From: Alphaproteobacteria bacterium
GTDB taxonomy: Bacteria > Pseudomonadota > Alphaproteobacteria > Rs-D84 > SZUA-605
Assembly: GCA_031549385.1 (NCBI GenBank)
Contig: JAVBPW010000001.1
Coordinates: 390,661 to 454,660 of the forward strand
DNA: 64,000 nt
Direction: 5' to 3'
How positions within the stretch are numbered: the stretch's first letter is position 1; the number at the start of each line of letters is the position of its first letter. The notes beneath the pieces are model-generated. The model was not told where the DNA came from, searched no databases, and was given only the letters and a program-made list of their open reading frames with translations. This document shows positions 1,017 through 59,775 of this stretch, piece by piece. The translations under genes were made by a program, and so were the position numbers.

Positions 1017-1425
1017 ACTTAAATTTAAAACATATGTACCATACTTTAGTGTCTGATGTTGATAGGAAATTTTATGAGGGTGGTTGGTCAAATTCATATG
1101 AATTGGAAAATGAATCACCATTTATTTCGATTTTTGAACGAAAAGTGTGTATTTGTAAAAATATCACTCACCGTGAGACAGGGGCCAAGGATTTATTCCT
1201 TTATTTTCCCCGCCAACCCTTTATTCAAGAGGATGCCTTTGTTGGTGACCAAGAAGTAAGGAATAGTTTGCTTGGTTTTAAATCAGCTGTTTTTAATGGA
1301 TTGCGTGATCAAAGAACTTGGTTCAAGGTTGAGAAAAATGAAGGCGCAGATCTGTTATATACAGGCTGGGGTGGGTAATTCATTTACAAAAAATTTAGGC
1401 TGGAATTTCCAGCCTTTTTTATTTC
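1017..1425 (+). ncRNA. Candidate non-coding transcript (about 400 nt) or degenerated gene remnant, running from the promoter to the intrinsic terminator
   Basis: The segment 1100-1390 is GC-elevated. The only ORFs (114 and 67 aa) have no recognisable protein features. It is bounded by an extended -10 promoter and a perfect terminator. It contains a degenerate reverse-oriented piece of the intergenic repeat around 1090-1160. Confidence 0.25.
1397..1425 (+). terminator. Rho-independent terminator (AGGCTGGAA/TTCCAGCCT stem plus T6)
   Basis: Perfect 9-bp inverted repeat followed by TTTTTT. Confidence 0.7.
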
Positions 1426-1970
1426 CCTTTTAAACCTAGCTGATAAATTTTTTCTAACATTTTTAATCTTTTTTCTTGGCTTACAAATTGTACACTGTAA
1501 AGAGGTGTTCTTTTTGCCTTAAATCCACAAAATTTAAAAATATGTCTGTTTAAACATTTCCATGTTACAAAGCCTGTTATTAATTGGTAAATCCAAGGTC
1601 CATTTAATGTATAAATAAAACGTACAGTTTTACCTTTCATTAATTTTGCTGGAATCATTCCTTTTCCATATTTGAAAAATACTCCGTGAACTATTGTTTT
1701 GTCTATCCAACCTTTGAATAAAGCAGGAACTGTGCCCCACCAAATAGGACTTTCAATTACTATATGGTCAGCCCATAAAAACCATTTTTGATGTTCTTGT
1801 ATGACTGGTTCAACCATCATGTTGCTGTTTGCAAGTGGGTCGAATTTTGTATCACGTAAAACTATTTTATTTACTTTGTTTTCTTTTTTTGCACCTTTTT
1901 CATAAGCTTCTATTAAGGCTTGTCCGAATGAGCCATGGAATGGGTGGGTGTCTATAATCAGTATATTCAT
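1419..1970 (-). CDS. Flavodoxin-like-fold NAD(P)H dehydrogenase (quinone), KefF/MdaB/general stress protein 14-like
   Basis: 'MNILIIDTHPFHGSFGQALIEAYEKGAKKENKVNKIVLRDTKFDPL' has the N-terminal flavodoxin_2 pattern, with ...WWGTVPALFKGWIDK downstream. AAGGAG RBS on the minus strand at 1977-1982. Confidence 0.6.
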   Translation of the reverse strand: MNILIIDTHPFHGSFGQALIEAYEKGAKKENKVNKIVLRDTKFDPLANSNMMVEPVIQEHQKWFLWADHIVIESPIWWGTVPALFKGWIDKTIVHGVFFKYGKGMIPAKLMKGKTVRFIYTLNGPWIYQLITGFVTWKCLNRHIFKFCGFKAKRTPLYSVQFVSQEKRLKMLEKIYQLGLKGK

Positions 1971-1990
1971 AATTTATCTCCTTGGGGGTA

Positions 1991-2115
1991 CGTTGAATTT
2001 TGGTTACGATTCAAAAGGATTTAAAATTTAAAGACGCATCACGTAGCCATATGTACGCTCAGGTCTTAAAATTTTAAATACTTTCGTTCTCACTCAAAAT
2101 TGAACGACCAATGAT
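1991..2115. repeat. MITE-like intergenic palindromic repeat, copy A (subfamily 1)
   Basis: Terminal inverted repeats CGTTGAATTTTGG...CTCAAAATTGAACG. Internal long hairpin with arms TTTAAAATTTAAAGAC/GTCTTAAAATTTTAAA around the palindromic core CGTAGCCATATGTACG. About 70% identical to copy F. Confidence 0.7.
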
Positions 2116-2242: not shown

Positions 2243-5200
2243 ATGGCATATCCAAAAACTAATGTATCTGTAAACTTTGTAGAAATAGAAAAAAATATCC
2301 AAAAATTTTGGGAAGATAATAAGATTTTTATGAAGTCAATTGATATTAGAAATGGAGCAGAGGATTTTGTGTTCTTTGATGGACCTCCTACTGGTAATGG
2401 TTTGCCTCATTATGGACATTTGGCAGTGTCTGCTATGAAAGATTGCGTTTGTCGTTATAAGACTATGCAAGGGTACCGAGTTATTAGAAATTTTGGTTGG
2501 GATTGTCATGGACTTCCTGTTGAAATAGAAGTTTGTAAAGAACGTGGACTTGCTGATAGAGATGCTATTTTATCTTATGGTATAGAAAAGTTTAACGGCG
2601 AATGTAAAAAAGATGTTATGAAATATCGTTCTATTTGGGTTGATACTTTAAATAGAGTTGGCAGATGGGGTAACTTTGATGCTGAATATAAGACTATGGA
2701 TTTTTCTTATATGGAATCTGTTATGTGGGCTATTTCTGAGCTTTATAAAAATGATTTACTTTATCAAGGTTATAAAGTTATGGCTTATTCTTATGGAGCT
2801 GAAACATCACTTTCTAATTCAGAAGCTAAGATGGAATATAAGGATAAAGTTGATCCTGCTATTACTGTTGCTTTTAAATTAAAAGATGATTTCTTAAGTA
2901 AGGAAACTCATGTTCTTGTTTGGACTACTACACCTTGGACACTTTGCACTAATTTAGCTTTGGTTGTTGGAAAGGATATTGATTATTCTGTTATGGAAGA
3001 AGATGGAACACAATATATTCTTGCTTCTGCTTTGGTTGCTAATTATAAAAAACAATTAGAAAATGCTACTCTTGTTAAAACTATTAAAGGTTCGGATTTA
3101 TTAGGTAAAGAATATGTGCCTATGTTTGATTATTATGCTCATCTTGAATTTAATAACGCTTTTAAAATCTATGATGCTGATTTTGTTTCAATAACTGATG
3201 GAACTGGAATTGTGCATATGGCTCCTTATGGAGAAGATGACTTTGAAGTTTTAAAGAAAAATAGTATTCCTGTTGTTTCTCCAGTTGACGGAAAAGGTTT
3301 GTTTAATTCAGAAGTTAAAGATTATGCTGGTATGCTTGTTTTTGATGCATCAGAAAAAATTATTCAAGATTTAAAAGAAAGAGGAGTGTTGATAAAAAAA
3401 GAAAACTATACTCACTCTTATCCTTATTGTTGGAGAACTAAAACTCCACTTATTTATAGACCTATGGAATCTTGGTTTGTGAATGTGGAAAAAATAAAAC
3501 AAAATATTATTGATGAAAACAAAGAAATAACTTGGGTGCCTGAACATCTTCGTGATGGACGTTTTGGTAAATGGTTAGAGGGTGCTAAAGATTGGGGTAT
3601 TTCAAGAAATCGTTTTTGGGGATGTCCGCTTCCTATTTGGGTAAGTGATAATCCTGATTTCAAAAGAATTGATGTTTTTGGATCATACGAAGAAATTGAA
3701 AAAGTTTCTGGTCAAAAAATTAGTGATCCACATAAACCTTTTATAGATGAAATTACTTATAAAAATCCTGATGATCCTTCTGGAAAAACTTTGATGAAGA
3801 GAATTCCTGATGTTTTGGATTGTTGGTTTGAAAGTGGAGCTATGCCTTTTGCTGCTCTTCATTATCCGTTCGAAAACAAAGAATTGTTTGAGGAAAGATT
3901 CCCTGCTGACTTTATTGTCGAAGGACAAGACCAAACACGTGGATGGTTTTATACTTTGATGGTGCTTGCTGTTGCATTATTTGGAAAGAAAGCATTTAAG
4001 GTTTGTATGGTTAATGGATTGGTTTTAAATGTTGAAAAGAAAAAACTTTCTAAATCAGAAAAGAATTATGTTTCACCTGATGTATTATTTGAAAGTTTAG
4101 GGGCTGAAGCTTTTAGATGGTATATGCTTAGTTCACCTTTGTTTAAAGCTGAATCTGTGGCATTTGATGAAAAGTTAACTGCTAAGGCTATGAGAGATGC
4201 TTTGATACCTTTATGGAATAGCTATCACTTCTTTACACTTTATGCTAATGCTGATAATGTTGATGCAAAAGAAATTGTAACTTCTTCAAATGTACTTGAT
4301 AGATATATTTTAGCAAAACTTAAAAAATTGTCTGTTGATGTTAAATCTAATATAGATAATTGGTCAGTTGATAAAGCATGTGTTAAAATTGTTGATTTCT
4401 TAGACGTTTTAAATAATTGGTATATCAGACGTTCTCGTGATAGATTCTGGGGGACTGGAATAACTAAAGAAATGTCAATGGAGGCGTTTAATACTCTTTA
4501 CACTGTACTTGTTAATGTGTGTAAAACTATTGCTCCTATTATGCCTCATGTGTCAGAATTTATTTATAAAAATTTAACTAATGAAGAAAGTGTGCATTTA
4601 GTTTTATGGCCAGATTTATCAACAATAGCTGATGAAGATGATTTGATTAAGGCTATGGATCAAGTGCAAGATGTTTGCAGATGTGGTAAATTTATACGTG
4701 AAGAAGAAAGTTTGCGTAACAGATTGCCTCTTGCTTCTGCTACTGTGGTTGGAATCGAATTGGAAGATTATTCTGATGTTATTGCTGATGAGTTAAATGT
4801 TAAAAAAGTTATATTCGATAAAAATCTTCCTCAGTATGCTGATAAGTTTTTGTATTTGATTACTCCTAAGATTGGGGAACGCTTAGGTGGAGCTTTAAAA
4901 GATATTATTCCTGCTTCTAAAAAAAGTGAATATAAACTTGCTAATGGAAAGTGTATTGTTGCTGGGTTTGAATTGAATAATGATGAATTCGAAGAAAGAC
5001 TTGTTTTGAAAAATGGAGTGCATGGAAAAGCATTATCTGATAACAGTGCTGTTGTTATGCTTGATTTAGTTGTTACTCCTGAATTGAAAAAAGAAGGAAT
5101 GGTTCGTGATTTTGTTAGAGCTGTTGCTGATGAAAGAAAAGAAATAGGTTTGGAAGTTACTGACAGAATTAAGCTTTATTATGAAACAGATAATAACGAA

Positions 5201-5338
5201 GTTATAGATGCTTTTAATACTTATTCAGGATATATAAAAGAACAAGTTCTTGCAGAAGTTTTTGAGAAAAATAAGATGGCTAAAAAAGAAGTTTTATTAG
5301 GAGATGTTAAAATATATTTATATTTAACTAAAAATTAG
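2243..5338 (+). CDS. ileS: Isoleucyl-tRNA synthetase, type 2 (eukaryote-like)
   Basis: HYGH motif ('PPTGNGLPHYGHL') and KMSKS motif ('KKLSKSEKN'). The ORF-track start at 2219 is TTG; ATG at 2243 is preceded by an AAGGAAA RBS. Confidence 0.95.
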   Translation: MAYPKTNVSVNFVEIEKNIQKFWEDNKIFMKSIDIRNGAEDFVFFDGPPTGNGLPHYGHLAVSAMKDCVCRYKTMQGYRVIRNFGWDCHGLPVEIEVCKERGLADRDAILSYGIEKFNGECKKDVMKYRSIWVDTLNRVGRWGNFDAEYKTMDFSYMESVMWAISELYKNDLLYQGYKVMAYSYGAETSLSNSEAKMEYKDKVDPAITVAFKLKDDFLSKETHVLVWTTTPWTLCTNLALVVGKDIDYSVMEEDGTQYILASALVANYKKQLENATLVKTIKGSDLLGKEYVPMFDYYAHLEFNNAFKIYDADFVSITDGTGIVHMAPYGEDDFEVLKKNSIPVVSPVDGKGLFNSEVKDYAGMLVFDASEKIIQDLKERGVLIKKENYTHSYPYCWRTKTPLIYRPMESWFVNVEKIKQNIIDENKEITWVPEHLRDGRFGKWLEGAKDWGISRNRFWGCPLPIWVSDNPDFKRIDVFGSYEEIEKVSGQKISDPHKPFIDEITYKNPDDPSGKTLMKRIPDVLDCWFESGAMPFAALHYPFENKELFEERFPADFIVEGQDQTRGWFYTLMVLAVALFGKKAFKVCMVNGLVLNVEKKKLSKSEKNYVSPDVLFESLGAEAFRWYMLSSPLFKAESVAFDEKLTAKAMRDALIPLWNSYHFFTLYANADNVDAKEIVTSSNVLDRYILAKLKKLSVDVKSNIDNWSVDKACVKIVDFLDVLNNWYIRRSRDRFWGTGITKEMSMEAFNTLYTVLVNVCKTIAPIMPHVSEFIYKNLTNEESVHLVLWPDLSTIADEDDLIKAMDQVQDVCRCGKFIREEESLRNRLPLASATVVGIELEDYSDVIADELNVKKVIFDKNLPQYADKFLYLITPKIGERLGGALKDIIPASKKSEYKLANGKCIVAGFELNNDEFEERLVLKNGVHGKALSDNSAVVMLDLVVTPELKKEGMVRDFVRAVADERKEIGLEVTDRIKLYYETDNNEVIDAFNTYSGYIKEQVLAEVFEKNKMAKKEVLLGDVKIYLYLTKN

Positions 5339-7271: not shown

Positions 7272-8066
7272 ATGAAAATTTTATTAGCACTATTATTGTT
7301 TTTTTCTTTTAATGGGTTTGCTCAGTCTGTTGATGCTCAGCTTTTATCTGTTAATGAAAAAATTGAAGAATTGATAAAAATAAAAGATAAAAAATTAATT
7401 GAACTTAATAAATGTGCTAGGTCTGTAAAAGGTTTTAAGGTTGCAGGGATTACTACTTTAACTGCGACTGGTGCTTTGGCAGGGGTTAATGTTTATCAAG
7501 GGGTTGAACAAATTAAAACTCAGAATGCTATTAATGATGAAAAGAGTAGATTAGAAGCTTTAAAACAAGATGAAATAAAGATTATTATTGTTCCAGGGGA
7601 AACTACTGATAGTTTAGTAAAAGATAAAAATAAAACAGAAGAAGAACTTAGAGAGCGTATTAAGAATATGACTCCTGAAGAACGACAAAAATATATAGAT
7701 AGTCAATACTGGCAAAATACTTCAGAAAAAGATATGTATGAAGCAGGTGTTGCTTATTTGGAAAAAGGTCAAAATCAAACTGCTATTGAAAGATTTAATA
7801 AGGCTTTAGAAATGAATCCTAATAATCCTTTTTCTTACTATGGAAGAGGGGCTGCAGAATATCATATAGGAAAATTAAATGAAGCTAAAGCTGATATAGA
7901 AAAATCGCTTGAACTTTGGGTGTTGGATGTAAAATTACCTTTTCATGATTTGAATGTAATATGTTTTAAATGTAGTGCTAAATATGATGAGGTTAAAAAG
8001 GTTTGCTACCGAACAGCTTCTGATGGAAAGCGAGCTGATTTGACTGATTTAAATAAATGTAAATAA
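7272..8066 (+). CDS. Secreted protein with K-C...glycine-zipper motif plus a C-terminal TPR repeat (family member 3)
   Basis: Signal peptide ...NGFAQS. Motif 'NKCARSVKGFKVAGITTLTATGALAGVNVYQGVEQ'. TPR-like segment 'AYLEKGQNQTAIERFNKALEMNPNNPFSYYGRGAAEYHIGKLNEA'. ATG at 7272 (track start 7257 is TTG). Confidence 0.65.
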   Translation: MKILLALLLFFSFNGFAQSVDAQLLSVNEKIEELIKIKDKKLIELNKCARSVKGFKVAGITTLTATGALAGVNVYQGVEQIKTQNAINDEKSRLEALKQDEIKIIIVPGETTDSLVKDKNKTEEELRERIKNMTPEERQKYIDSQYWQNTSEKDMYEAGVAYLEKGQNQTAIERFNKALEMNPNNPFSYYGRGAAEYHIGKLNEAKADIEKSLELWVLDVKLPFHDLNVICFKCSAKYDEVKKVCYRTASDGKRADLTDLNKCK

Positions 8067-8070
8067 AAAT

Positions 8071-8092
8071 AGCCCCATAAGGGGCTTTTTTT
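8071..8092. terminator. Bidirectional intrinsic terminator between convergent genes
   Basis: AGCCCCATAAGGGGCT hairpin flanked by T/A runs on both strands. Confidence 0.7.
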
Positions 8093-8927
8093 AAAACTTC
8101 ACTGGAATATTTTTTGCAACTGAGTCAATCAGTTTCAGTTTTTCCAGTAATGACTTCATGTCTTCCAACCTGATGGAGTTTGGTCCGTCAGATGGAGCAT
8201 TGTCAGGATCGTCATGCGTTTCAAGGAACACACCCGCCATTATTCCTGTAGAAAGCGCGGCACGAGCTAATACTTCCACATGGTCTCTGTTTCCTCCTGT
8301 AGTTGCACCTGCACTGCCCGGTTGTTGGACTGCATGAGTTGCATCAATAATCAGAGGGTAACCAGCGTGACCCATTATGGGAAAGCCTGTTATGTCTACC
8401 ACCAAACCGCCGAAGCCAAATGTAGTTCCCCGTTCAGTGAACATAATATTATCGTTCCCTGTTGAGGCTGCTTTTGCAGCTAAGTTTTGCATCATTTGAG
8501 GGCCTAAAAATTGACCCTTTTTGATGTTAACAACTTTTCCGGTTTCTGCAGCTGCAATCACCAAATCGGTTTGGCGACAAAGAAACGACGGGATTTGCAG
8601 AATATCTGCTACCTGCGCTGCCTTTTCACACTGAATTGTCTCATGCACATCGGTGATTATGGGAAGATTTAATTCTTCCTTAATCCCTTTAAGGATACGT
8701 AATCCTTCTTTCATGCCTACACCTCTTTTTGAGGTGAGGGAAAGCCGGTTTGCTTTGTCGTATGATGATTTGAATATAAGGTTTATATTCAAATCTGTGC
8801 AGACTTTTTTTAGGTGTTCTGCTATCATAAAGCAATGAGCTTCACTTTCAATCTGGCAAGGGCCAGCAATCAATGTGAATGGCAGGTTATTTGCCATTAA
8901 GAAGTTTTTTATTTTAATTGTTTTCAT
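8091..8927 (-). CDS. kdsA: 2-dehydro-3-deoxyphosphooctonate aldolase (KDO-8-phosphate synthase)
   Basis: N-terminus 'ANNLPFTLIAGPCQIES' aligns to the E. coli KdsA 'ANDLPFVLFGGMNVLES'. Length is DAHP/KDO8P-synthase-like. Confidence 0.9.
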   Translation of the reverse strand: MKTIKIKNFLMANNLPFTLIAGPCQIESEAHCFMIAEHLKKVCTDLNINLIFKSSYDKANRLSLTSKRGVGMKEGLRILKGIKEELNLPIITDVHETIQCEKAAQVADILQIPSFLCRQTDLVIAAAETGKVVNIKKGQFLGPQMMQNLAAKAASTGNDNIMFTERGTTFGFGGLVVDITGFPIMGHAGYPLIIDATHAVQQPGSAGATTGGNRDHVEVLARAALSTGIMAGVFLETHDDPDNAPSDGPNSIRLEDMKSLLEKLKLIDSVAKNIPVKF

Positions 8928-9072: not shown

Positions 9073-10551
9073 TTACTTTTCTTCCTTTTTCTTTTCTGGT
9101 TTTAAAGTTGGAAAGGCAATAATATCACGTATGTTTTGATTGTTTGTTAGGAACATTATCAATCTGTCTATTCCTATTCCCATTCCGCCTGTTGGAGGCA
9201 TACCATATTCAAGAGCTGTGATGAAATCTTCATCCAAATCCTCAGCTTCATCGTTTCCTGCTTTGGATTGTCTTACTTGGTCTTCCATACGTTCTCTTTG
9301 ATCCCTTGGATCTGTTAATTCAGTGTATGCATTTGATACTTCTTTTCCATTTATTCTTGTTTCAAAGCGTTCTACTAAACGAGGATGTAGGCGATGCTCT
9401 TTTGTTAATGGTGAAATGTCTTTTGGATAGTCTATTACATGAATTGGTTGGATTAGTTTTGGTTCTACTAATTCAAAAATTGCTTCAATTATTTGACCCC
9501 AATTCTTTCCTTCTTCTACAAAAACTTCTAATTCATCTGCTATTTTTCTTACATCTTGGACAGTTGAATCTAATGAAATATCTCTGCCTAAATATTCTTT
9601 TATTAATTCAAACATTGTTGCGCGTCGAAAAGGTGGTTTGAAATTAATTAAATTTTCACCAACTTGAACTTCATATGTGCCATTGAATTTTAGACATAGA
9701 TGGCCTATTAAATCTTCAAGTAATTTCATCATGTCATTATAGTCTGCATATTGTTCGTATAATTCCATCATTGTGAATTCTGGATTGTGTGTTAGGTCTA
9801 TACCTTCGTTTCTAAACATTTTTCCAATTTCGAAAATCTTTTCATATCCACCTATGATTAATCTTTTTAAATATAATTCTGGAGCAATACGCAAAAACAT
9901 ATCCATATCAAGAGTGTTGTGATGTGTTATAAATGGTCTTGCTGCTGCACCTGTTTTTGTTGTTTGTAGGATTGGTGTTTCTACTTCTATGAATCCAAGA
10001 TTAATTAAAAAATTTCTTATTTCTTGAATCATTAAAAAACGAGTCATAAGAGTATCTCTTGTTTCTTTATTTGAAATCATATCTAAATATCTTTGGCGAT
10101 ATTTTACTTCGTGATCTACTAGCCCATGGAATTTTTCAGGTGGTGGTAATAAATTCTTTGAAAGCATTGTTATAGCTTTTGTACGTACTGTTAATTCACC
10201 AGCTTTTGTTTTAGAAATGATACCTTCTACTCCAACTATATCACCCACTGAAATAGATTTTAGTATCTTTTGGTTTAATTCGTCTAAATCATTTTTGTAT
10301 GAAAATATTTGTATCTTTCCTGTTTGGTCTTGCATGTCCATGAACATGCCAGAATTACGATATGCATAAACACGGCCTGCTACTTTTACTACATCAGTTG
10401 TTGTTTCTTCTGGTTGTAAATTTTTATATTTTTCTTGCAAATCACCGGCTTTTGCTGATGGTTTGAAGATATGTGGGTAGGCATTAATATTTAATTCTTC
10501 TAGTTGTGCTAGCTTTTCTAATCTTGAATCTCTTTGTGGGTTTTGGCTCAT
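9073..10551 (-). CDS. lysS: Lysyl-tRNA synthetase, class II
   Basis: 492 aa. N-terminal OB anticodon-binding region and class II motifs ('FRNEGID', 'GGMGIGIDRLIMFLT'). Confidence 0.95.
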   Translation of the reverse strand: MSQNPQRDSRLEKLAQLEELNINAYPHIFKPSAKAGDLQEKYKNLQPEETTTDVVKVAGRVYAYRNSGMFMDMQDQTGKIQIFSYKNDLDELNQKILKSISVGDIVGVEGIISKTKAGELTVRTKAITMLSKNLLPPPEKFHGLVDHEVKYRQRYLDMISNKETRDTLMTRFLMIQEIRNFLINLGFIEVETPILQTTKTGAAARPFITHHNTLDMDMFLRIAPELYLKRLIIGGYEKIFEIGKMFRNEGIDLTHNPEFTMMELYEQYADYNDMMKLLEDLIGHLCLKFNGTYEVQVGENLINFKPPFRRATMFELIKEYLGRDISLDSTVQDVRKIADELEVFVEEGKNWGQIIEAIFELVEPKLIQPIHVIDYPKDISPLTKEHRLHPRLVERFETRINGKEVSNAYTELTDPRDQRERMEDQVRQSKAGNDEAEDLDEDFITALEYGMPPTGGMGIGIDRLIMFLTNNQNIRDIIAFPTLKPEKKKEEK

Positions 10552-10613
10552 TTTTTTCTCCGTTAACTTTTTCTTTTCTATTATATTTGAGGCAATTTAA
10601 AATACAATAAAAA

Positions 10614-10640
10614 AAGCCCATGAAGGGCTTTCTTTTATTT
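10614..10640 (-). terminator. Intrinsic terminator for rpsT (minus strand)
   Basis: AAAGCCCTTCATGGGCTTT hairpin followed by a U-run on the minus strand. Confidence 0.65.
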
Positions 10641-10658
10641 ATCTTAAAAGCCCTGAAA

Positions 10659-33668: not shown

Positions 33669-36023
33669 ATGGAAGATACAAGAAAAAAATTAACTTTATC
33701 TATTAAATCTGCTCCAGTTAGCAATGCGCCTGGTGGAGTTAAGATAGAACGTAGAAGAAAAATTTTTAAGCCTGGAGAAAGTGTTGTTTCCAGTACTAAC
33801 TTGTCGTCTTCTGCTTCTGCAGAGCGATTGAAAAATATTTTAGATCAGGCGAAAAAAACTGATGAAAATAAATTAGATTTTTCTGCTCTTGATTCTAAGA
33901 GAAGAACTCTTATTGAAGAAGATAATCAAATCAGACAAGAAAGACAAAAGAAAGTCGAAAGTATTGTTGAAGAAGAAAAGAAAGAAGAAACTTCTAAACA
34001 ACCATCTCATGATTCTGGAAAAACCTTTAAAAGAACTGAAGAAGAACAACCAAAATCTTCTTTTATTAAAGAAGTGCCTAAAAACTTTAAGAAAGCAGAT
34101 AATTTTGATAAAAGAAAAATTACTGTTAAAGATATTTATGTTGATAATGGTGATGAATCAGGTGATGTTGTTGTTAGAGAAAGAAGACGCTCAATTGCAT
34201 CTTTCCAACGTAAACTTGAAAAACAACGTTTGAAAAATCTTGAAAAACAAACTGAATTAAAGCCTGTTATTAAAGAAGTTGAAATCCCTGATTTCATTTC
34301 TGTAAAAGATTTAGCGAATCGTATGTCTGTTGTTTCAGCACAAGTAGTAAAAAAATTAATGGAAATGGGTGTTATGGCTACTCTTAACCAAATTATTGAT
34401 GCCGATACTGCTCAATTAATTGTTGAAGAATTTGGTCATAAATTTAAACGTGTTGGTGAAGAAGAAACTATTGAAGGTACATTGAAAACTAAAGATGATG
34501 AAGCAACTCTAAAATCACGTCCACCTGTTGTGACTATTATGGGGCATGTTGATCATGGTAAGACTACATTATTAGATGCTTTGCGTGAAACTGATGTTGT
34601 GTCTACTGAAGCTGGTGGAATTACTCAACATATTGGTTCATATCAAATTGAAACAAAAAGTGGAAAACGAATCACTTTTATAGATACTCCTGGACACGCT
34701 GCATTCTCTGCTATGCGTGCAAGAGGTGCTAATATCACTGACATAGTTGTTTTAGTGGTTGCTGCTAATGATGGAATTATGCCACAAACAGTTGAAGCTA
34801 TTAGTCATGCTAAAGCTGCTGGAGTACCTATTATTGTTGCTATTAATAAGATTGATTTGGCAGAAGCAAATCCAACTAAAGTTAGATCTGAGTTATTAAC
34901 TCACGGGTTGGTTACTGAAGAATTTGGTGGAGATATTTTATCTGCTGAAATTTCTGCTAAGAAAAAAATGAATCTAGATAAGCTTGAAGATTTAATTTTA
35001 TTACAAGCTGAGATGTTGAATTTAAAAGCAAACCCTGATCGTAGTGCTGAAGGGGTGGTTATTGAAGCTGAAGTTGAAAAAGGATTTGGTTCTGTTGCTA
35101 CTGTTTTAATTCAAAAAGGTACTTTGAAGATTGGAGATGTTTTTGTTTCTGGTCAACAATGGGGACGTGTTAGAGCTTTAACTGATGCTTATAAAAATAA
35201 ATTAATTTCTGCTGGACCTGCTTTCCCTGTTATTGTTCTTGGATGGACTGGAAATTCTTCTGCTGGAGATGATTTTGTTGTAGTGGAAAATGAAGCAAAA
35301 GCTAGAGATATTGCAGCATATCGTGAAAAGAAATATAAAGAACATTTATTGGCTATTAAATCTAAATCTATGATGGAACAATTAATGAATGGTGTTAAAG
35401 ATGGAGATGTTAAAAAACTTACTATTTTGATTAAGGCTGACGTGAATGGATCAGCTGAGGCTATTCAAACTTCTATTATGCAAATTAAATCTGATAAAGT
35501 TAAACCTGAAGTTATTATGAGTGGGGTTGGTGAAATAAACGAATCAGATATTACTTTAGCTAAAACTGCTCGTGCTCTTGTTATTGGATTTAATGTTAGA
35601 GCTAATGCAACTGCTAAAGAATTGGCTAAACAAGAAGGAATTGATATAAGATATTATTCTATTATTTATAACTTACTTGATGATATTAAAATGGCTATGG
35701 AAGGTTTGTTAACTCCAGAAATAAAAGAAAATATTATTGGTACTGCAGATGTGCTTCAAGTATTTACAGTTGGTAAAGGAACTAAAGTTGCAGGGTGCAG
35801 AGTTGCAGAAGGTATTATTAAAAGAAATGCTAAAATACGTTTAGTTAGAGATAATATAGTTTTATACCAAGGTGAAATAGGACAAATGAAGCATGGTATG
35901 GACGATGTTAAAGAACGTAAAGAAGGCCAAGAATGTGGATTGTCATTTGATAAGTATAATGATATACAAGTGGGTGACAAAATAGAATGTTATGAAGAAG
36001 AATCAATCAAAAGTTCATTATAA
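33669..36023 (+). CDS. infB: Translation initiation factor IF-2
   Basis: G-domain '[14 protein letters not shown]', 'DTPGH', 'NKID'. Lys/Glu-rich N-terminal region. Confidence 0.95.
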
Positions 36024-36036
36024 TGGACTTGGGGCG

Positions 36037-36169
36037 CATTGAATTTTGGTTGCAAAGCAAAAGAGAAACTAAAAAATTTAACTTCACCGTATTTTAATAC
36101 GCCATCGTCAAATTTTTTAATTTACTTTTGTTTTCACTCAAAATTGAATGGTCAATGATATGTTTAAGA
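36037..36169. repeat. MITE-like intergenic palindromic repeat, copy B (subfamily 2)
   Basis: Head 'CATTGAATTTTGGTTGCAAAGCAAAAGAG', central palindrome 'CGTATTTTAATACG' flanked by inverted arms, tail 'CACTCAAAATTGAATGGTCAATGAT'. The tail is the inverted complement of the head (TIR). Confidence 0.7.
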
Positions 36170-36215: not shown

Positions 36216-36860
36216 ATGAATGAAAATCAATATTATCGAATCGATGAAGGAAATCCTACTTATCTTCCTAATAAGTCTTTGAAGGTCTTTATGGAACTTT
36301 CTTCTCATAAAGGAGTTTATATCTTTAAGGAAATAGGTAAGTTTTATAAAGTAGACGTGTATGAAAAGAAATATAAAATTCTTTTTCATATTCCGGCTTC
36401 AGATGAAATGTTTCTTTATGATAAATATTCTTTGTCATATGAGAAAATTTTTGAAGGAGAAACTGGTGTTTCTTTTGAGATTAAGGAAACTTTTTATGAA
36501 GGTGGATTTTTGATAAAGAGGAATGATGAATTCTTCTTAACTAATTACTTTGCAGAAGTTACTTTGCTTGGTATGGAAGTTGGGCTTAATTGTTTTCTTA
36601 AAAAAGAGCAAAATCCAAATAAGCCGGAATTGAAGTATAAAATTTCAACAATTTATAAAGATGGTGTTGGAGAAGATCGTTGTTGCAGTTATGTTTTGGA
36701 AAAAGGATTTGTAGTTTGTAAGGATTTAAATAATCAATTACAAGTTTATCCAAGAGCTCCTGGGCAATATATTATTGAAGAAAACAATGAAATACGGGTT
36801 TATGTTTGTAAAGGTTCCTATTGGATATTGGAAAAATTCAATGTTCCAAGTAAAGAGTAA
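36216..36860 (+). CDS. Hypothetical protein (214 aa), island gene
   Basis: No signal or TM. No homology recognisable by eye. Ends at a bidirectional terminator. Confidence 0.5.
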   Translation: MNENQYYRIDEGNPTYLPNKSLKVFMELSSHKGVYIFKEIGKFYKVDVYEKKYKILFHIPASDEMFLYDKYSLSYEKIFEGETGVSFEIKETFYEGGFLIKRNDEFFLTNYFAEVTLLGMEVGLNCFLKKEQNPNKPELKYKISTIYKDGVGEDRCCSYVLEKGFVVCKDLNNQLQVYPRAPGQYIIEENNEIRVYVCKGSYWILEKFNVPSKE

Positions 36861-46859: not shown

Positions 46860-47468
46860 ATGAAAAAAAATGGCGTTAATTTTTGGACCATTCCAAATAT
46901 TTTAACTTATATACGAATTATATCTATTGCACCTATGATTTGGTTGATGTTCTTGGCTAAAGGGTCTAATAATTATTTTGATATTTTTTTCTTTGGTAAT
47001 GTAGAATTTATGAGTTTTTTAGCTGCTTTCATTTATGCTTATGGAGCAGTGACTGATTGGCTTGATGGATATATTGCTAAGAAATATAATCAATTTTCTG
47101 ATTTTGGAAGAGCATTGGATCCTATTGCTGATAAGTTAATTGTTATAGCTGTTTTAATGGTTTTGTGTTTTACTAAATTTAATGCTTTTGAAGTTGTTCT
47201 TGCTTACTTGATTGTGTTTAGAGAAATTCTTATTTCTGGTTTTAGAGAAGCATTGGCTGATTATAATATGAAGATGCCTGTTATATTTGTTGCTAGAGTA
47301 AAAACATATATTCAAATGTTTGCTGTAGGCTTTTTAATGGCTTTTGATAGAACCAATATTTGGTATGATGTTGGTTTCTGGTTATTAGTTGTTGCTGTGG
47401 TGCTTACTCTTTATACTGGAGTGATATATATGAATACTATTATAAAAACACTTGTAGGAAAGAAGTAA
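46860..47468 (+). CDS. CDP-alcohol phosphatidyltransferase (PgsA-like)
   Basis: 'DWLDGYIAKKYNQFSDFGRALDPIADK' is the CDP-OH P-transferase motif D-x2-DG-x2-AR...G-x3-D-x3-D. Confidence 0.8.
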   Translation: MKKNGVNFWTIPNILTYIRIISIAPMIWLMFLAKGSNNYFDIFFFGNVEFMSFLAAFIYAYGAVTDWLDGYIAKKYNQFSDFGRALDPIADKLIVIAVLMVLCFTKFNAFEVVLAYLIVFREILISGFREALADYNMKMPVIFVARVKTYIQMFAVGFLMAFDRTNIWYDVGFWLLVVAVVLTLYTGVIYMNTIIKTLVGKK

Positions 47469-47470
47469 AC

Positions 47471-47588
47471 ATTTGAAAATTGGCTGCAAAGCAAAAAGAG
47501 TTAAAAGATTGCTTCACAATCACGTATATTAATACGCTCATGCGAAGACAACTTCCAACTTTTTAGTTTTCGCTCTATTTTGAAATGT
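47471..47588. repeat. MITE-like intergenic repeat, copy C (subfamily 2)
   Basis: 'TTGAAAATTGGCTGCAAAGCAAAAAGAG...CACGTATATTAATACGCTCATGCG...TTTTAGTTTTCGCTCTATTTTGAAATG'. Lies between convergent genes. Confidence 0.65.
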
Positions 47589-47593
47589 TTTAA

Positions 47594-48373
47594 TTAAAGA
47601 TAGGAAGAAAAGGTTATTAGTTTTTTAAAGCTTGGTAATTTAAACTTTTCTTTTGAGTTAGAGGTTTGTGCAAGGTTTTGTGAAGGAAGAGTGGCAAATG
47701 TCCATCCTTTCTTTTTTAATTCTGTGATTGCTTTTTTTAATCCTTCATAGGTTTCTGATTCTGGATGATTCATGTGAGCTATGATAATGTCACCAGATTT
47801 TACTTTGATTGTATTTTTATAAACTTGTTCCTTTTTTAATTTAGCACCTTGATCTGCGTTGATTGCAAAGCCTGCTATTTTGATGTGTTGAGATGATATT
47901 ACTTTTATTCCATTCTTATCATAAGTAGCAGTTCCTGAACGAAACCATGATGGTTTTGTGTGAGTTAATTTTTCTATTTCTTTTGAATTGTCTGTAATTT
48001 CATTAATTAATTCTTCTTTGGACTTTGTTCCTTTTATTCCATATACTGTTGTTTCTGTGGTTGATGCTGGTTTGTGATTTGTTCCATGATTTTCTATTTT
48101 AAATAATGGATTTAAAGATAATTTTTTTGCAATTTCAGGATTCTTTTTAATCCATTTACCTGATAAAAATAAAGTTGTTGGAATTTTGTTTTGAGTTAGA
48201 AAAACTATTAACCTTTTATCTGTTTTTCCATTGCAAGCATCTAAAGTTAAATATGCTATTTTTTCTTTTGTTGGAATGTTTGTTATGATTTCTGAAGAAT
48301 TAGAAATCATTGCAGCAAAAGACGTGCAAGAAAAACTCATTAAAAATGAGAATAATAGAATAGCTTGTTTCAT
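47594..48373 (-). CDS. Polysaccharide deacetylase (CE4/NodB-like), secreted
   Basis: Signal peptide. 'YLTLDACNG' resembles the NodB-type 'TFDDG' motif 1 (TLDA for TFDD). His-rich 'IENHGTNH' and 'IIAHMNHPE'. Confidence 0.6.
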   Translation of the reverse strand: MKQAILLFSFLMSFSCTSFAAMISNSSEIITNIPTKEKIAYLTLDACNGKTDKRLIVFLTQNKIPTTLFLSGKWIKKNPEIAKKLSLNPLFKIENHGTNHKPASTTETTVYGIKGTKSKEELINEITDNSKEIEKLTHTKPSWFRSGTATYDKNGIKVISSQHIKIAGFAINADQGAKLKKEQVYKNTIKVKSGDIIIAHMNHPESETYEGLKKAITELKKKGWTFATLPSQNLAQTSNSKEKFKLPSFKKLITFSSYL

Positions 48374-50286: not shown

Positions 50287-50369
50287 TTTCTATCCTCGTT
50301 TTTTATCTGTTTTGATTATAAGAGTTTTGAAATATATTGCAATAAAAAAGAGCCTTTTAAGACTCCTTT

Positions 50370-50897
50370 TTATTGTGAAATTATCATTGATAGTTTTTTA
50401 CCTTCCATCAAAGGTTCTTTTTCTATTTTAAAGTTGCCTTGTAGGTCAGCCTTGAACTTTTGTAGTAAATCATAACCCTTTTGTTTGAATTGTAGATCAC
50501 GACCTTTGAAACGTACTGTTAATTTTACTTTATCACCATGTTCTAAAAACTTTTGTGCTGCTTTAAGTTTTACTTCATAGCCTTCGCCTTCTATTGATGG
50601 ACCAAATGTTAATTCTTTTAGTTTTGTTATAACTTGATTCTTTTTTGCTTCTTGTTTCTTTTTTTGTTTTTCAAATTTGAAACGTCCATAATCCATGATT
50701 TTACATACTGGTGGCTCAAGGTTTGGTGAGATTTCGACTAGGTCTAGTCCTGCATTGTCAGCCATTGATAGAGCTTGAGATAGAGAGATTACTCCTATGT
50801 TTTCCCCGTTTTCGTCGATAAGACGTATTTGAGAAGCTCTGATTTCTTTGTTTTTTCTTAATTCATCTTCTTTTTTTACAAATTTTTTGTTGTCCAC
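50370..50897 (-). CDS. infC: Translation initiation factor IF-3
   Basis: 'KEIRASQIRLIDENGENIGV...DLVEISPNLEPPVCKIMDYGRFKFE'. GTG start in the track. A non-canonical AUU/AUA start upstream is possible, as is typical for infC. Confidence 0.9.
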   Translation of the reverse strand: MDNKKFVKKEDELRKNKEIRASQIRLIDENGENIGVISLSQALSMADNAGLDLVEISPNLEPPVCKIMDYGRFKFEKQKKKQEAKKNQVITKLKELTFGPSIEGEGYEVKLKAAQKFLEHGDKVKLTVRFKGRDLQFKQKGYDLLQKFKADLQGNFKIEKEPLMEGKKLSMIISQ

Positions 50898-58620: not shown

Positions 58621-59514
58621 ATGTTGAAAATGTTAGGAAAATTAAAATTAGTTAACTTTATCCCTATTACTGTTAATGTAAACTTTTTAAGATTTAGAAA
58701 ATTAGGATATTTAATTTATGCAATATTAATTGCTGCAACTATTGGACTTATGGTAACTAAAGGTTTCAATTATGGAATCGATTTCTCAGGTGGAATTGTT
58801 GTTGAAATTAAAACTGATGAATCTATTGAATCTTTAAGACATAGACTTTCTTCATTCGATCCAGAACTTCAAACTTTTGGTGAAAATTTAATTTCTATTC
58901 GACTTCCTGCTGCAGGGGATAATGAAGATGCTCAAATGTCAAAACTTTCAGAATTGAAAAATGCATTGGGTGATAATGTAGAATATAGAAATACTGAAGT
59001 AGTTGGACCAAAAGTTGGTGCTGAATTGATTAGAGATGGTATACTTGCATTTATTATTGCTATGGTTGCAATTGCTGCATATATTTGGATAAGATTTGAT
59101 TTTGCATTTGGATTTTGTGCGTTCCTTGGTCTTGTAGTTGATCTTTTAGTAACTATTGGATTTTTATCATTATTTCAACTTCCGTTTTCACTTGTATCTA
59201 TTGCTGCTATTTTAACAGTTGTTGGATATTCTATTAATGATACGGTGGTGGTTTATGATAGAATCCGTGAAAATCTTAAAAAATATAAAACTAAAAGTGA
59301 AAAAGAAATTATTGATTTGAGTATGAATGAAATGTTTGCAAGAACTACATTTACCACACTTACAACTATGATTGCAATTGTTGCAATTACTATTTGGGGT
59401 GGAATAGTGTTAGAAAGTTTTGCATATACTTTATTGTTCGGAATTGGAGCAGGTGTTTTTTCATCTATATTTATGGCAGCACCGATGCTACTTAATTTTA
59501 AATTAAGAGGATAA
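58621..59514 (+). CDS. secF: Protein translocase subunit SecF
   Basis: 'GFNYGIDFSGG' is the SecF N-terminal motif. Six TM helices. 'GYSINDTVVVYDRIRE'. Confidence 0.9.
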   Translation: MLKMLGKLKLVNFIPITVNVNFLRFRKLGYLIYAILIAATIGLMVTKGFNYGIDFSGGIVVEIKTDESIESLRHRLSSFDPELQTFGENLISIRLPAAGDNEDAQMSKLSELKNALGDNVEYRNTEVVGPKVGAELIRDGILAFIIAMVAIAAYIWIRFDFAFGFCAFLGLVVDLLVTIGFLSLFQLPFSLVSIAAILTVVGYSINDTVVVYDRIRENLKKYKTKSEKEIIDLSMNEMFARTTFTTLTTMIAIVAITIWGGIVLESFAYTLLFGIGAGVFSSIFMAAPMLLNFKLRG

Positions 59515-59528
59515 TTCAAATTTATCTA

Positions 59529-59635
59529 ATTGGCTCAAGCCAAAAGGATTGAAAATTTTGCCACACATCATGTATGTTTAATATACTCAGGTGGCAAAAT
59601 TTACAATACTTTCGTTTTTGCTCAATTATCTGAAT
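59529..59635. repeat. MITE-like intergenic palindromic repeat, copy F (subfamily 1)
   Basis: About 70% identical to copy A. Hairpin arms 'TTGAAAATTTTGCCAC/GTGGCAAAATTTACAA' carry compensatory changes relative to A (AAAGAC/GTCTT becomes TGCCAC/GTGGCA). Tail 'ATACTTTCGTTTTTGCTCAATTATCTGAAT'. Confidence 0.65.
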
Positions 59636-59775
59636 TTGCTTGGAAAAATATAAATTTTAAAAGTGTTTTCTTTATTAACGCTTGACAAAGTATGTATTTT
59701 TTTGATACATTTCCCCGATATGGCCAGGGAAATAAATCTAAGGCCAAATTGTTAACTAAAAAAAAGGTGTAAAAA

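Follow-up and report, generated by a model that had tools for sequence, protein, structure and literature searches.

Two imperfect palindromes, copy A (1991-2115) and copy F (59529-59635), in the 64-kb stretch of DNA that was analyzed (the window) are best read as two of four copies of an element in the class of dispersed bacterial hairpin repeats, to which REP, ERIC, and RPE belong, and not as MITEs defined by transposase ends. The favored explanation, to which we give a probability of about 45%, is that the element is a mobile or formerly mobile hairpin repeat, which is kept as a co-transcribed 3'-end structure and whose loop is read by a conserved protein. Copies would arise by insertion via an enzyme and would persist at sites where they are transcribed together with the upstream gene, as its 3' tail or as an inter-cistronic spacer. 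The hairpin may be a barrier or a processing mark at the mRNA 3' end, as described for REP and ERIC hairpins. Along the long stem, the sequence drifts with the arms staying complementary. The conserved 4x4 mismatch that interrupts the stem near the tip would be the docking site for the protein which mobilizes or reads the element.

A wider claim is possible, if doubtful. The tip module may mark an undescribed, bacteria-wide class of structured elements of ~120 nt, which stand in a fixed orientation 45-65 nt past stop codons, occur in one to many copies per genome, and are occasionally inserted in frame. Its module would be a variable helix, a conserved UCA/CUC mismatch (on the other strand GAG/UGA, a tandem G.A stack), and a short apical stem. 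Such a class would be either a new general 3'-end "punctuation" signal for a conserved reader protein or a new hairpin-dependent mobile element whose mobilizing enzyme is conserved. Short palindromic repeats are commonly dismissed as junk of single lineages or taken for local regulators. The best conserved part of this element is common to an obscure Rickettsiales-like genome, to Firmicutes-type loci, one of which lies beside spo0A, and to DNA of 30-71% GC. If the wider claim is true, one partner, whether an RNase, a mobilizing enzyme, or a protein that binds RNA or DNA, would read the same loop across much of bacteria, and the element would be a handle for finding this partner. It would also bear on how message ends are marked in bacteria without obvious terminators, and on the origin of Rickettsia-style "protein-coding palindromes". 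For annotation, these are 120-nt hairpins without an Rfam family, which lengthen proteins on landing in genes such as nadD.

Copies in the window and in related genomes

Both palindromes lie where the original prediction had placed them, and the terminal inverted repeats CGTTGAATTTTGG and CTCAAAATTGAACG and the arm sequences it quoted were found. Their extent had been given slightly too short; the hairpins reach 1987-2109 (A) and 59517-59638 (F). The predicted identity of ~70% agrees with the global alignment, in which 73 of 105 aligned columns (69.5%) are identical. The identities correspond to 57% of the alignment length, above all of 60 shuffles (32 ± 8%, maximum 44%). When both strands were folded, a check proposed with the prediction, A and F each formed a single long hairpin either way. 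Their minimum free energies are -33.8 to -37.9 kcal/mol, with z of -4.4 to -6.1, and none of 200 shuffles was as stable. The arms had been said to differ between the copies and yet to stay complementary, and this was borne out. In the homologous columns, 13 pairs are identical, four show double, pair-preserving substitutions, and none shows a single-sided change. The four compensated pairs are 2022/2076 (TA to GC), 2031/2067 (AT to GC), 2032/2066 (AT to CG), and 2033/2065 (GC to CG).

The description as a dispersed palindromic intergenic repeat holds, but the copy number of two does not. With a profile built from the copies, nhmmer detected four in the window (A, 1985-2120; C, 36031-36165; D, 47464-47596; F, 59516-59642), all on the plus strand, with E-values between 1e-22 and 6e-31. 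The repeat unit in these copies is an imperfect palindrome of 120-135 bp without coding capacity. The relaxed core ATCAYGTA-N4-10-TAYRCTCA occurs three times in the window, against an expectation of 0.00. A narrower, window-specific pattern (CAAAAG...ACTTTYGTTYTYRCTCAA) gave seven scattered, chance-like matches in the genome contigs that were scanned. The window copies are only 60-70% alike, indicating that they are old. The two additional copies in the window, together with further copies in three related or distant lineages, argue against the possibility, raised with the prediction, that A and F form an isolated pair or belong to a duplicated segment that includes gene sequence.

Neighboring genes were assigned by Pfam. 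Three of the copies (C, D, and F) start 0-4 nt past a stop codon. Copy C (36028-36159, plus strand) starts 4 nt past the stop codon of infB (36021-36023). Its tip (36084-36107) is degenerate, TCAC-CGTA-TTTTAA-TACG-CCATCG, and the copy was not detected by the covariance model of the wider family described below. Copy D (47469-47588, plus strand) starts at the base after the stop codon (47466-47468) of a CDP-alcohol phosphatidyltransferase (pgsA-like) gene. It fills the spacer up to the stop codon (47594-47596) of the convergent polysaccharide deacetylase gene, and its tip is at 47519-47542; the copy is recovered by the covariance model with an E-value of 7e-6. Copy F (59517-59638, plus strand) starts 2 nt past the stop codon of secF (59512-59514), and the promoter-like site for acpP (59682-59711) is downstream of it. 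In the tip (59567-59591), ATCA-TGTA-TGTTTAA-TATA-CTCA-GG, the first pair of the apical stem is compensated; the covariance model match of the copy is marginal (E = 1.3).

Copy A (1980-2115, plus strand; nhmmer E = 4.5e-30, covariance model E = 7e-4) separates the start of a flavodoxin-like NAD(P)H dehydrogenase gene (1419-1970, minus strand) from ileS (2243-5338, plus strand). Its conserved tip (2038-2063, plus strand) is ATCA-CGTA-GCCATATG-TACG-CTCA-GG. The unpaired ends, CTTGGGG (1980-1986) and CAATGAT (2109-2115), are common to A and C. Thus, the grouping of A and F as one subfamily was not upheld, as the ends of A are closer to those of C than to those of F.

Copy A is a positional exception, as it occupies a divergent promoter region and does not follow a sense gene. 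The promoter-like sites near the copies are consensus matches only. The best one near A is on the minus strand (2158-2130); it has TTGTAA, 17 nt, TATAAT, and a TG extension, giving 10 of 12 matches together with an extended -10. The ribosome-binding site AAGGAG of the flavodoxin-like gene (1978-1983) abuts copy A. From this arrangement of sequence signals, copy A probably forms the 5' leader of the flavodoxin-like gene, with transcription on the opposite strand. The promoter-like site for ileS (2184-2212) lies downstream of copy A, and therefore regulation of ileS by copy A appears unlikely. The predicted location of A in a promoter region agrees with these sites, but the suggested modulation of ileS does not; for the dehydrogenase gene, the putative minus-strand promoter would put A in its 5' leader.

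From sequence comparison, the host is a deep Rickettsiales-like lineage. Its SecF has one relative at 76% identity, labeled as a "Rickettsiales bacterium" MAG, and others at no more than 51%, labeled Alphaproteobacteria. Homologue searches with the flavodoxin-like protein and PgsA found no close relatives. In the locus with the 76% identical SecF (L008), a family member directly follows secF, in the same position as copy F, and another directly follows fabF. Both were detected by the covariance model. There is no copy after fabF in the window. In a relative whose SecF is 49% identical, a copy directly follows secD, and its tip is ATCA-TGTA...TACA-CTCA. The first pair of the apical stem thus covaries from C-G to U-A, and the flanking loop is kept.

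The conserved tip and the wider family

The best conserved part of the element is the tip, in which a variable helix is followed by a 4x4 mismatch and then by a short CGTA/TACG stem. On the gene-sense strand, the mismatch is ATCA opposite CTCA; on the other strand it is UGAG/UGAU, i.e., U.U, tandem G.A/A.G, and G.U. The hairpin is capped by the stem, which has 4-6 bp and whose first pair covaries to TGTA/TACA, and by a free loop.

Metagenome contigs were scanned with the tip pattern ATCACGTA-N5-9-TACGCTCAKG, and at least 120 loci were found, for which 122 matches were listed. Complementary arms (at least 6 of 8 pairs) flank the core in 86 of the 122 listed matches, against an estimated ~4 by chance. 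The 86 fall into 30 sequence groups at 85% identity, from DNA of 30-71% GC, or 29 groups after one chance match (L033) was dropped. Further common features are the outer stems and the sequences GCGTTG (5' side) and CGCCT(T/A)G (3' side). The search pattern was derived from the cores of A and D, which in part accounts for the invariant tip of the metagenome set, and the sample is biased to one tip sequence. Variants independent of the pattern, CTCA...CTCG in L063 and GTCA...CTCC in L119, keep the central UC/UC positions, and in both the outer position of the loop has become a Watson-Crick pair.

A covariance model trained on 17 metagenome sequences only recovered 75 elements in 100 loci. In its alignment, 91.8% of cells are paired, compared with 70.7% in shuffles and 29-48% with slid partners. 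In the variable helix, double changes are observed at all 15 of the variable pairs. The link between the window copies and the wider family rests on the tip module. The conservation of structure claimed in the original prediction exceeds chance, but propagation templated by the hairpin, which it had named as the other possibility, fits less well with a loop that persists while the stems turn over. This pattern argues against mere hairpin-templated homogenization and for selection on the loop, or for a specific partner. A K-turn or C/D-box loop was considered and set aside. The bases on either side of the loop covary (C-G or A-U), indicating a symmetric loop and not a 3-nt bulge.

The element was not matched to any described family in the resources searched. 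Neither the window nor 20 family loci have a match in Rfam 15 at the gathering threshold, and the E-value mode gave only noise, all far below gathering scores. Among plasmids and phages, BLAST found nothing similar to copy A or to a high-GC member, and a scan of viral contigs gave five matches, taken as chance level. A full-text literature search with the core sequence retrieved unrelated primers only. The literature on REP, MITE, and RPE yielded general works, none of which describes the tip motif.

Placement, insertion, and comparison with known repeats

In 23 of the 27 distinct elements that are not cut off by a contig end, an ORF of at least 100 aa on the same strand ends 20-140 nt before the core, mostly 45-65 nt before it. 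By the same test on the other side, a convergent gene is present at only 11 of the 25 loci that could be tested. Its distance varies from locus to locus, and most of these loci are in high-GC DNA, which is rich in spurious ORFs and in which ORF calls are crude. Among the four elements without a sense ORF, that of L119 follows another copy, the two lying in tandem behind the stop codon of fabG, and L056 may be a similar tandem case. For the window copies and their relatives, the spacing from the stop codon to the core is 43-60 nt. The spacing is narrow for stop codons of all three kinds. Since the core nearly always starts 43-64 nt past the stop codon, the foot of the hairpin abuts or contains it, and at several loci the stop codon and the codons just before it are part of the outer stem.

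The upstream genes are mutually unrelated housekeeping genes, encoding NrdA, MreB, GAPDH, iPGM, E2 acyltransferase, and acyl-CoA dehydrogenase. Others encode a DASS transporter, a glycogen debranching enzyme, and Spo0A, the last of which places one locus in Firmicutes. The 35 loci with a copy behind nrdA form a single orthologous cluster, in which the copy occupies the nrdA-nrdB spacer. This copy is retained, with compensatory turnover, across NrdA proteins that are 83-100% identical. This retention and that after secF (in the window and L008) indicate that a retained function fits at least as well as selfish spread. In the contigs of ~70% GC from one metagenome, 11 or more copies lie behind different genes. 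Five or more of these start 1-2 nt past TAG or TGA, and most of the copies have inverted-repeat ends in common.

Mobility is implied in some cases. The copy after fabF is present in L008 and absent from the window, and tandem copies are observed in L081, L119, and L123. None of the four window copies is intragenic, a point on which the original prediction had asked for a check; in the wider family, one copy is inserted in frame in nadD of L063. This copy corresponds to an insert of 49 residues, in the orientation opposite to the gene. The NadD of L063 aligns to that of B. subtilis (PDB 1KAM) as residues 18-114 and 164-261, and chain residue 103 of 1KAM is on both sides of the break. By eye, there are no direct repeats at the flanks of A, C, D, or F that would be target-site duplications. 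In other lineages, palindromic ends CTAG or TTAA are indistinguishable from an extended stem. Neither a transposase nor a recurrent neighboring protein was found near the copies; only the synteny of the nrd cluster recurs. The case for mobility thus rests on presence/absence and one intragenic copy, because neither a target-site duplication nor a transposase was seen.

Four families of repeats resemble the element. RPEs (Ogata et al. 2000, as reported in PMC10969869 and PMC3733652) have several features in common with it: both are palindromic repeats of 100-150 bp in AT-rich, Rickettsiales-type genomes, with several diverged families per genome. RPEs became notable for lying in frame within protein-coding genes, and in the wider family the nadD copy of L063 does so. 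The host here is, however, not Rickettsia, and the four window copies are all intergenic. The tip is common to Firmicutes-type and high-GC loci, a feature undescribed for RPEs in the sources cited. The comparison covered the described features of RPEs; by sequence, the element may belong to one of the families RPE-1 to RPE-10.

REPs, with the composite BIMEs and REPINs and the associated RAYT in E. coli and Pseudomonas (PMC3733652, PMC3116915), are likewise asymmetric extragenic palindromes. They are found mostly behind coding regions, between co-directional or convergent genes, and are probably transcribed. They are also tandem or clustered and show compensatory changes, and mRNA stabilization has been proposed for them. 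However, a REP unit is 20-40 nt long with a GTAG/CGTC tag at its foot, and a REPIN consists of two inverted REPs with a variable center. The present element is one hairpin of 110-135 nt with a conserved center and without a GTAG/CGTC foot. REP sequences are lineage-specific, whereas the tip here spans 30-71% GC. No RAYT gene was seen near the copies, in the 64 kb of the host or in the fetched loci. The CGTC/GTAG REP superfamily, which was suggested by GCGTCGTC in some copies, was ruled out by the published definitions.

ERIC/IRU and Correia (NEMIS/CREE) elements are imperfect palindromes of ~100-170 bp that are transcribed and intergenic and often overlap gene ends. Reports on ERIC in Yersinia and on Correia elements in Neisseria describe effects on mRNA processing and stability that depend on orientation. 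In contrast to the present element, these families are confined to Enterobacteria/Vibrio or Neisseria and have conserved termini (26-bp terminal inverted repeats and a TA duplication in Correia elements), and they lack the conserved apical mismatch loop. Here the host and the ends are different and no TA duplication is seen by eye. The likening to Correia elements in the original prediction is therefore not followed.

The attC sites of integrons also show similarity. They, too, are imperfect palindromes (57-141 bp) that immediately follow the stop of an ORF on the same strand, their structure is conserved more than their sequence, and the strand antisense to the ORF folds better or acts. In attC, the R''/R' core sites (RYYYAAC / GTTRRRY) at the foot are conserved, the tip is variable, and the cassette genes lie beside an integrase. 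In the present element, by contrast, the tip is conserved, the foot varies and does not fit RYYYAAC/GTTRRRY, and the neighbors are housekeeping genes. The combination of a cross-phylum tip loop and a stereotyped distance from the stop codon is what makes the element differ from REP/REPIN, Correia, attC, terminators, and MITEs.

Acting strand and other explanations

Of the two strands, the one antisense to the upstream gene gives the more stable fold in 28 of 29 elements (mean -61.9 versus -49.8 kcal/mol). This advantage seems to come mainly from the conserved loops. Wobble pairs were also considered as a means of assigning the strand, and this was abandoned. The counts of 73 versus 39 fell to 22 G.U pairs for the antisense strand against 18 for the sense strand (other mismatches, 43) once the nrdA cluster was removed and the set dereplicated. 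G.U pairs are therefore no commoner on either strand, and the usual signature of RNA structure is missing. The context favors the sense strand, because the sense version would be the one co-transcribed. Independent antisense sRNA genes were dropped as an interpretation, as the neighborhoods of C, D, and F have no promoter-like site on the minus strand.

Raw GC skew is confounded by the coding strand. Its replication component is positive on the plus strand of the element in all six loci with genes on both strands. In L063, the sign is the same as in the other loci though all genes are on the other strand. Only L063 truly separates replication from transcription. The agreement with replication skew indicates that replication rather than transcription could set the orientation.

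These observations are the ground of a rather unlikely alternative, in which the element is a hairpin of single-stranded DNA or antisense RNA. It would be moved by an enzyme of the HUH/Y1 kind, as IS200/IS605 or REP with RAYT, or made through a cDNA-like intermediate. The acting strand would be antisense to the upstream gene, with the loop as a compact stack of U.U, tandem G.A, and G.U. Replication would set the orientation, and the link with genes would be a by-product of genes co-oriented with replication. The better folding of the antisense strand, the skew, and the lack of a strand-specific wobble signature agree with it. So do the invariant positions of the loop, which read GAG...UGA on that strand, with the outer position Watson-Crick in the variants. 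The single orientation of the four window copies, even though A does not follow a sense gene, and that of the nadD insertion, opposite to its gene, point the same way. However, no HUH, RAYT, or IS200-like gene was seen near any copy, though none needs to adjoin. The 23 sense placements out of 27 at 45-65 nt are hard to obtain from replication direction alone, and a single locus distinguishes this direction from that of transcription. The lack of minus-strand promoters beside C, D, and F also counts against this alternative.

The strand itself raises a further difficulty for that alternative. In transposition of the IS608 type, the active strand is on the lagging-strand template. Here, this strand would be the G-rich plus strand and not the better-folding one.

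An unlikely explanation is also a non-mobile, cis-acting RNA which evolves in place. It would be a "punctuation" hairpin of 3' UTRs and inter-cistronic spacers, with the AUCA/CUCA loop recognized by a conserved RNase or RNA-binding protein. Its role would be to set or protect the 3' end of the message from the upstream gene, or to uncouple neighboring cistrons, and chloroplast 3' inverted repeats are a functional analogy. The stereotyped distance from the stop codon and the sense orientation are expected from such an RNA, as are retention at orthologous sites (secF in two lineages, nrdA across a clade) and a loop conserved across phyla between covarying stems. The inclusion of the stop and last codons in the outer stem at several loci also fits. 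But copies within a genome are more alike than the structure needs, including in their unpaired ends (A and C, and most of the at least 11 copies of ~70% GC), which indicates copying. Evolution in place is also at odds with the in-frame nadD copy, the tandem copies, the presence/absence at fabF, and the position of copy A in a promoter region, and G.U pairs are not in excess over A.C mismatches.

A classical MITE, i.e., a deletion derivative of an IS which is moved in trans by a DDE transposase acting on its terminal inverted repeats and leaves target-site duplications, is very unlikely. MITEs are 50-500 bp long, non-coding, and present in several copies (PMC10969869), and four copies of 120-135 bp in 64 kb, with terminal inverted repeats and an intergenic location, agree with this. 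However, the inverted ends differ among the copies (an A/C type, an F type, and a D type) and among lineages, and the center is conserved, which is the reverse of what recognition of ends by a transposase would give. Neither the window nor the fetched loci contain an IS with matching ends, and the strong orientation rule is unexpected of a symmetric element. With the termini least conserved, no target-site duplication seen by eye at the four copies, and no transposase adjoining, the term MITE as used in the original prediction is not supported in the strict sense.

That the copies are ordinary intrinsic (Rho-independent) terminators which resemble each other by coincidence is hardly credible: the location at gene ends and the stable hairpins fit, but the stems are AT-rich and ~50 bp long, a scan of all four copies for G+C-rich stems with a T-run found neither a terminator-like site nor a U-tract, copy A is placed in a promoter region, and canonical forms occur elsewhere in the window.

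Examples of the canonical hairpin-plus-T-run in the window are those at 8060-8093 and 10604-10641.

The fatty-acid synthesis cluster

The fatty-acid synthesis cluster holds or adjoins copies of the hairpin repeat in three separate lineages. In the window, copy F (59517-59638) is found in the order secF-element-acpP-fabF. The same order is seen in L008, the locus of a relative labelled 'Rickettsiales bacterium', where a further element follows fabF (2235-2365 and 4131-4250). In the metagenome locus L119, two tandem elements occupy 4594-4830, in the order fabG-two elements-acpP-fabF. This placement may be a coincidence, or the elements may favour the spacer that precedes acpP.

The copy behind secF in L008 contains an additional G+C-rich, hairpin-like segment (gattggcttgcgggctcctcataaacgggcaaagcccgaactcgtcggag; region 2330-2420) ahead of the terminal ATTATCTGAATTT motif, which also terminates copy F. 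The additional segment may represent either a repeat of a second type or an insertion nested within the copy. The secF-fabF region of L008 is flanked by genes for an N6/N4 DNA methyltransferase and a DUF559 protein (89-814 and 4527-4874), both of which are absent from the corresponding place in the window.

Putative terminators, RNA gene search and unassigned ORFs in the window

Three G+C-rich hairpins with A and T runs on their flanks are present in the window at 8060-8093, 10604-10641, and 50341-50376; their form is AAAAAGCCC...GGGCTTTTT. They are similar to one another and look like canonical intrinsic terminators, possibly bidirectional. If they are terminators, the genome uses ordinary terminators at some gene ends.

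ARAGORN detected no tRNA or tmRNA gene across the whole 64 kb window, and no Rfam family reached the threshold anywhere in it. No T-box or other leader lies upstream of ileS; the product of this gene is a long IleRS that ends in a C-terminal DUF5915 domain. Pfam gave no match for two ORFs, one at 1034-1378 (114 aa) and one at 36216-36860 (214 aa), the latter immediately downstream of copy C. A collection of 5.8 billion proteins contains no homologue of the flavodoxin-like protein adjoining copy A at more than 38% identity.

A possible expansion, and tandem copies

The metagenome Ga0315912 has at least 11 copies, each on a separate contig of ~70% GC (L009, L015, L021, L022, L037, L048, L054, L083, L086, L087, and L096). 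Most of them have the long ends GCGGGGGCGGCGGACGGCCATCTGCGGCG ... CATCTGGCCATCCGGCGCTCCCCGC in common, and several start 1-2 nt past TAG or TGA. They look like a recent expansion within one high-GC organism.

Tandem copies at a spacing of 146-177 nt were found in L074, L104, L081 (24-45 and 201-222), and L123, whose two cores lie 146 nt from one another. In the loci of ~40% GC, each unit is preceded by a small GCCC-GAAG-GGC hairpin, which suggests a composite repeat.

Insertion in nadD

In the metagenome locus L063, a family member lies in frame (9403-9549) within the minus-strand gene nadD (9103-9891). The element contributes ~49 extra residues, and the positions on either side of them are direct neighbours in NadD of B. 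subtilis (PDB 1KAM). The coding strand of this nadD is the better-folding strand of the inserted element.
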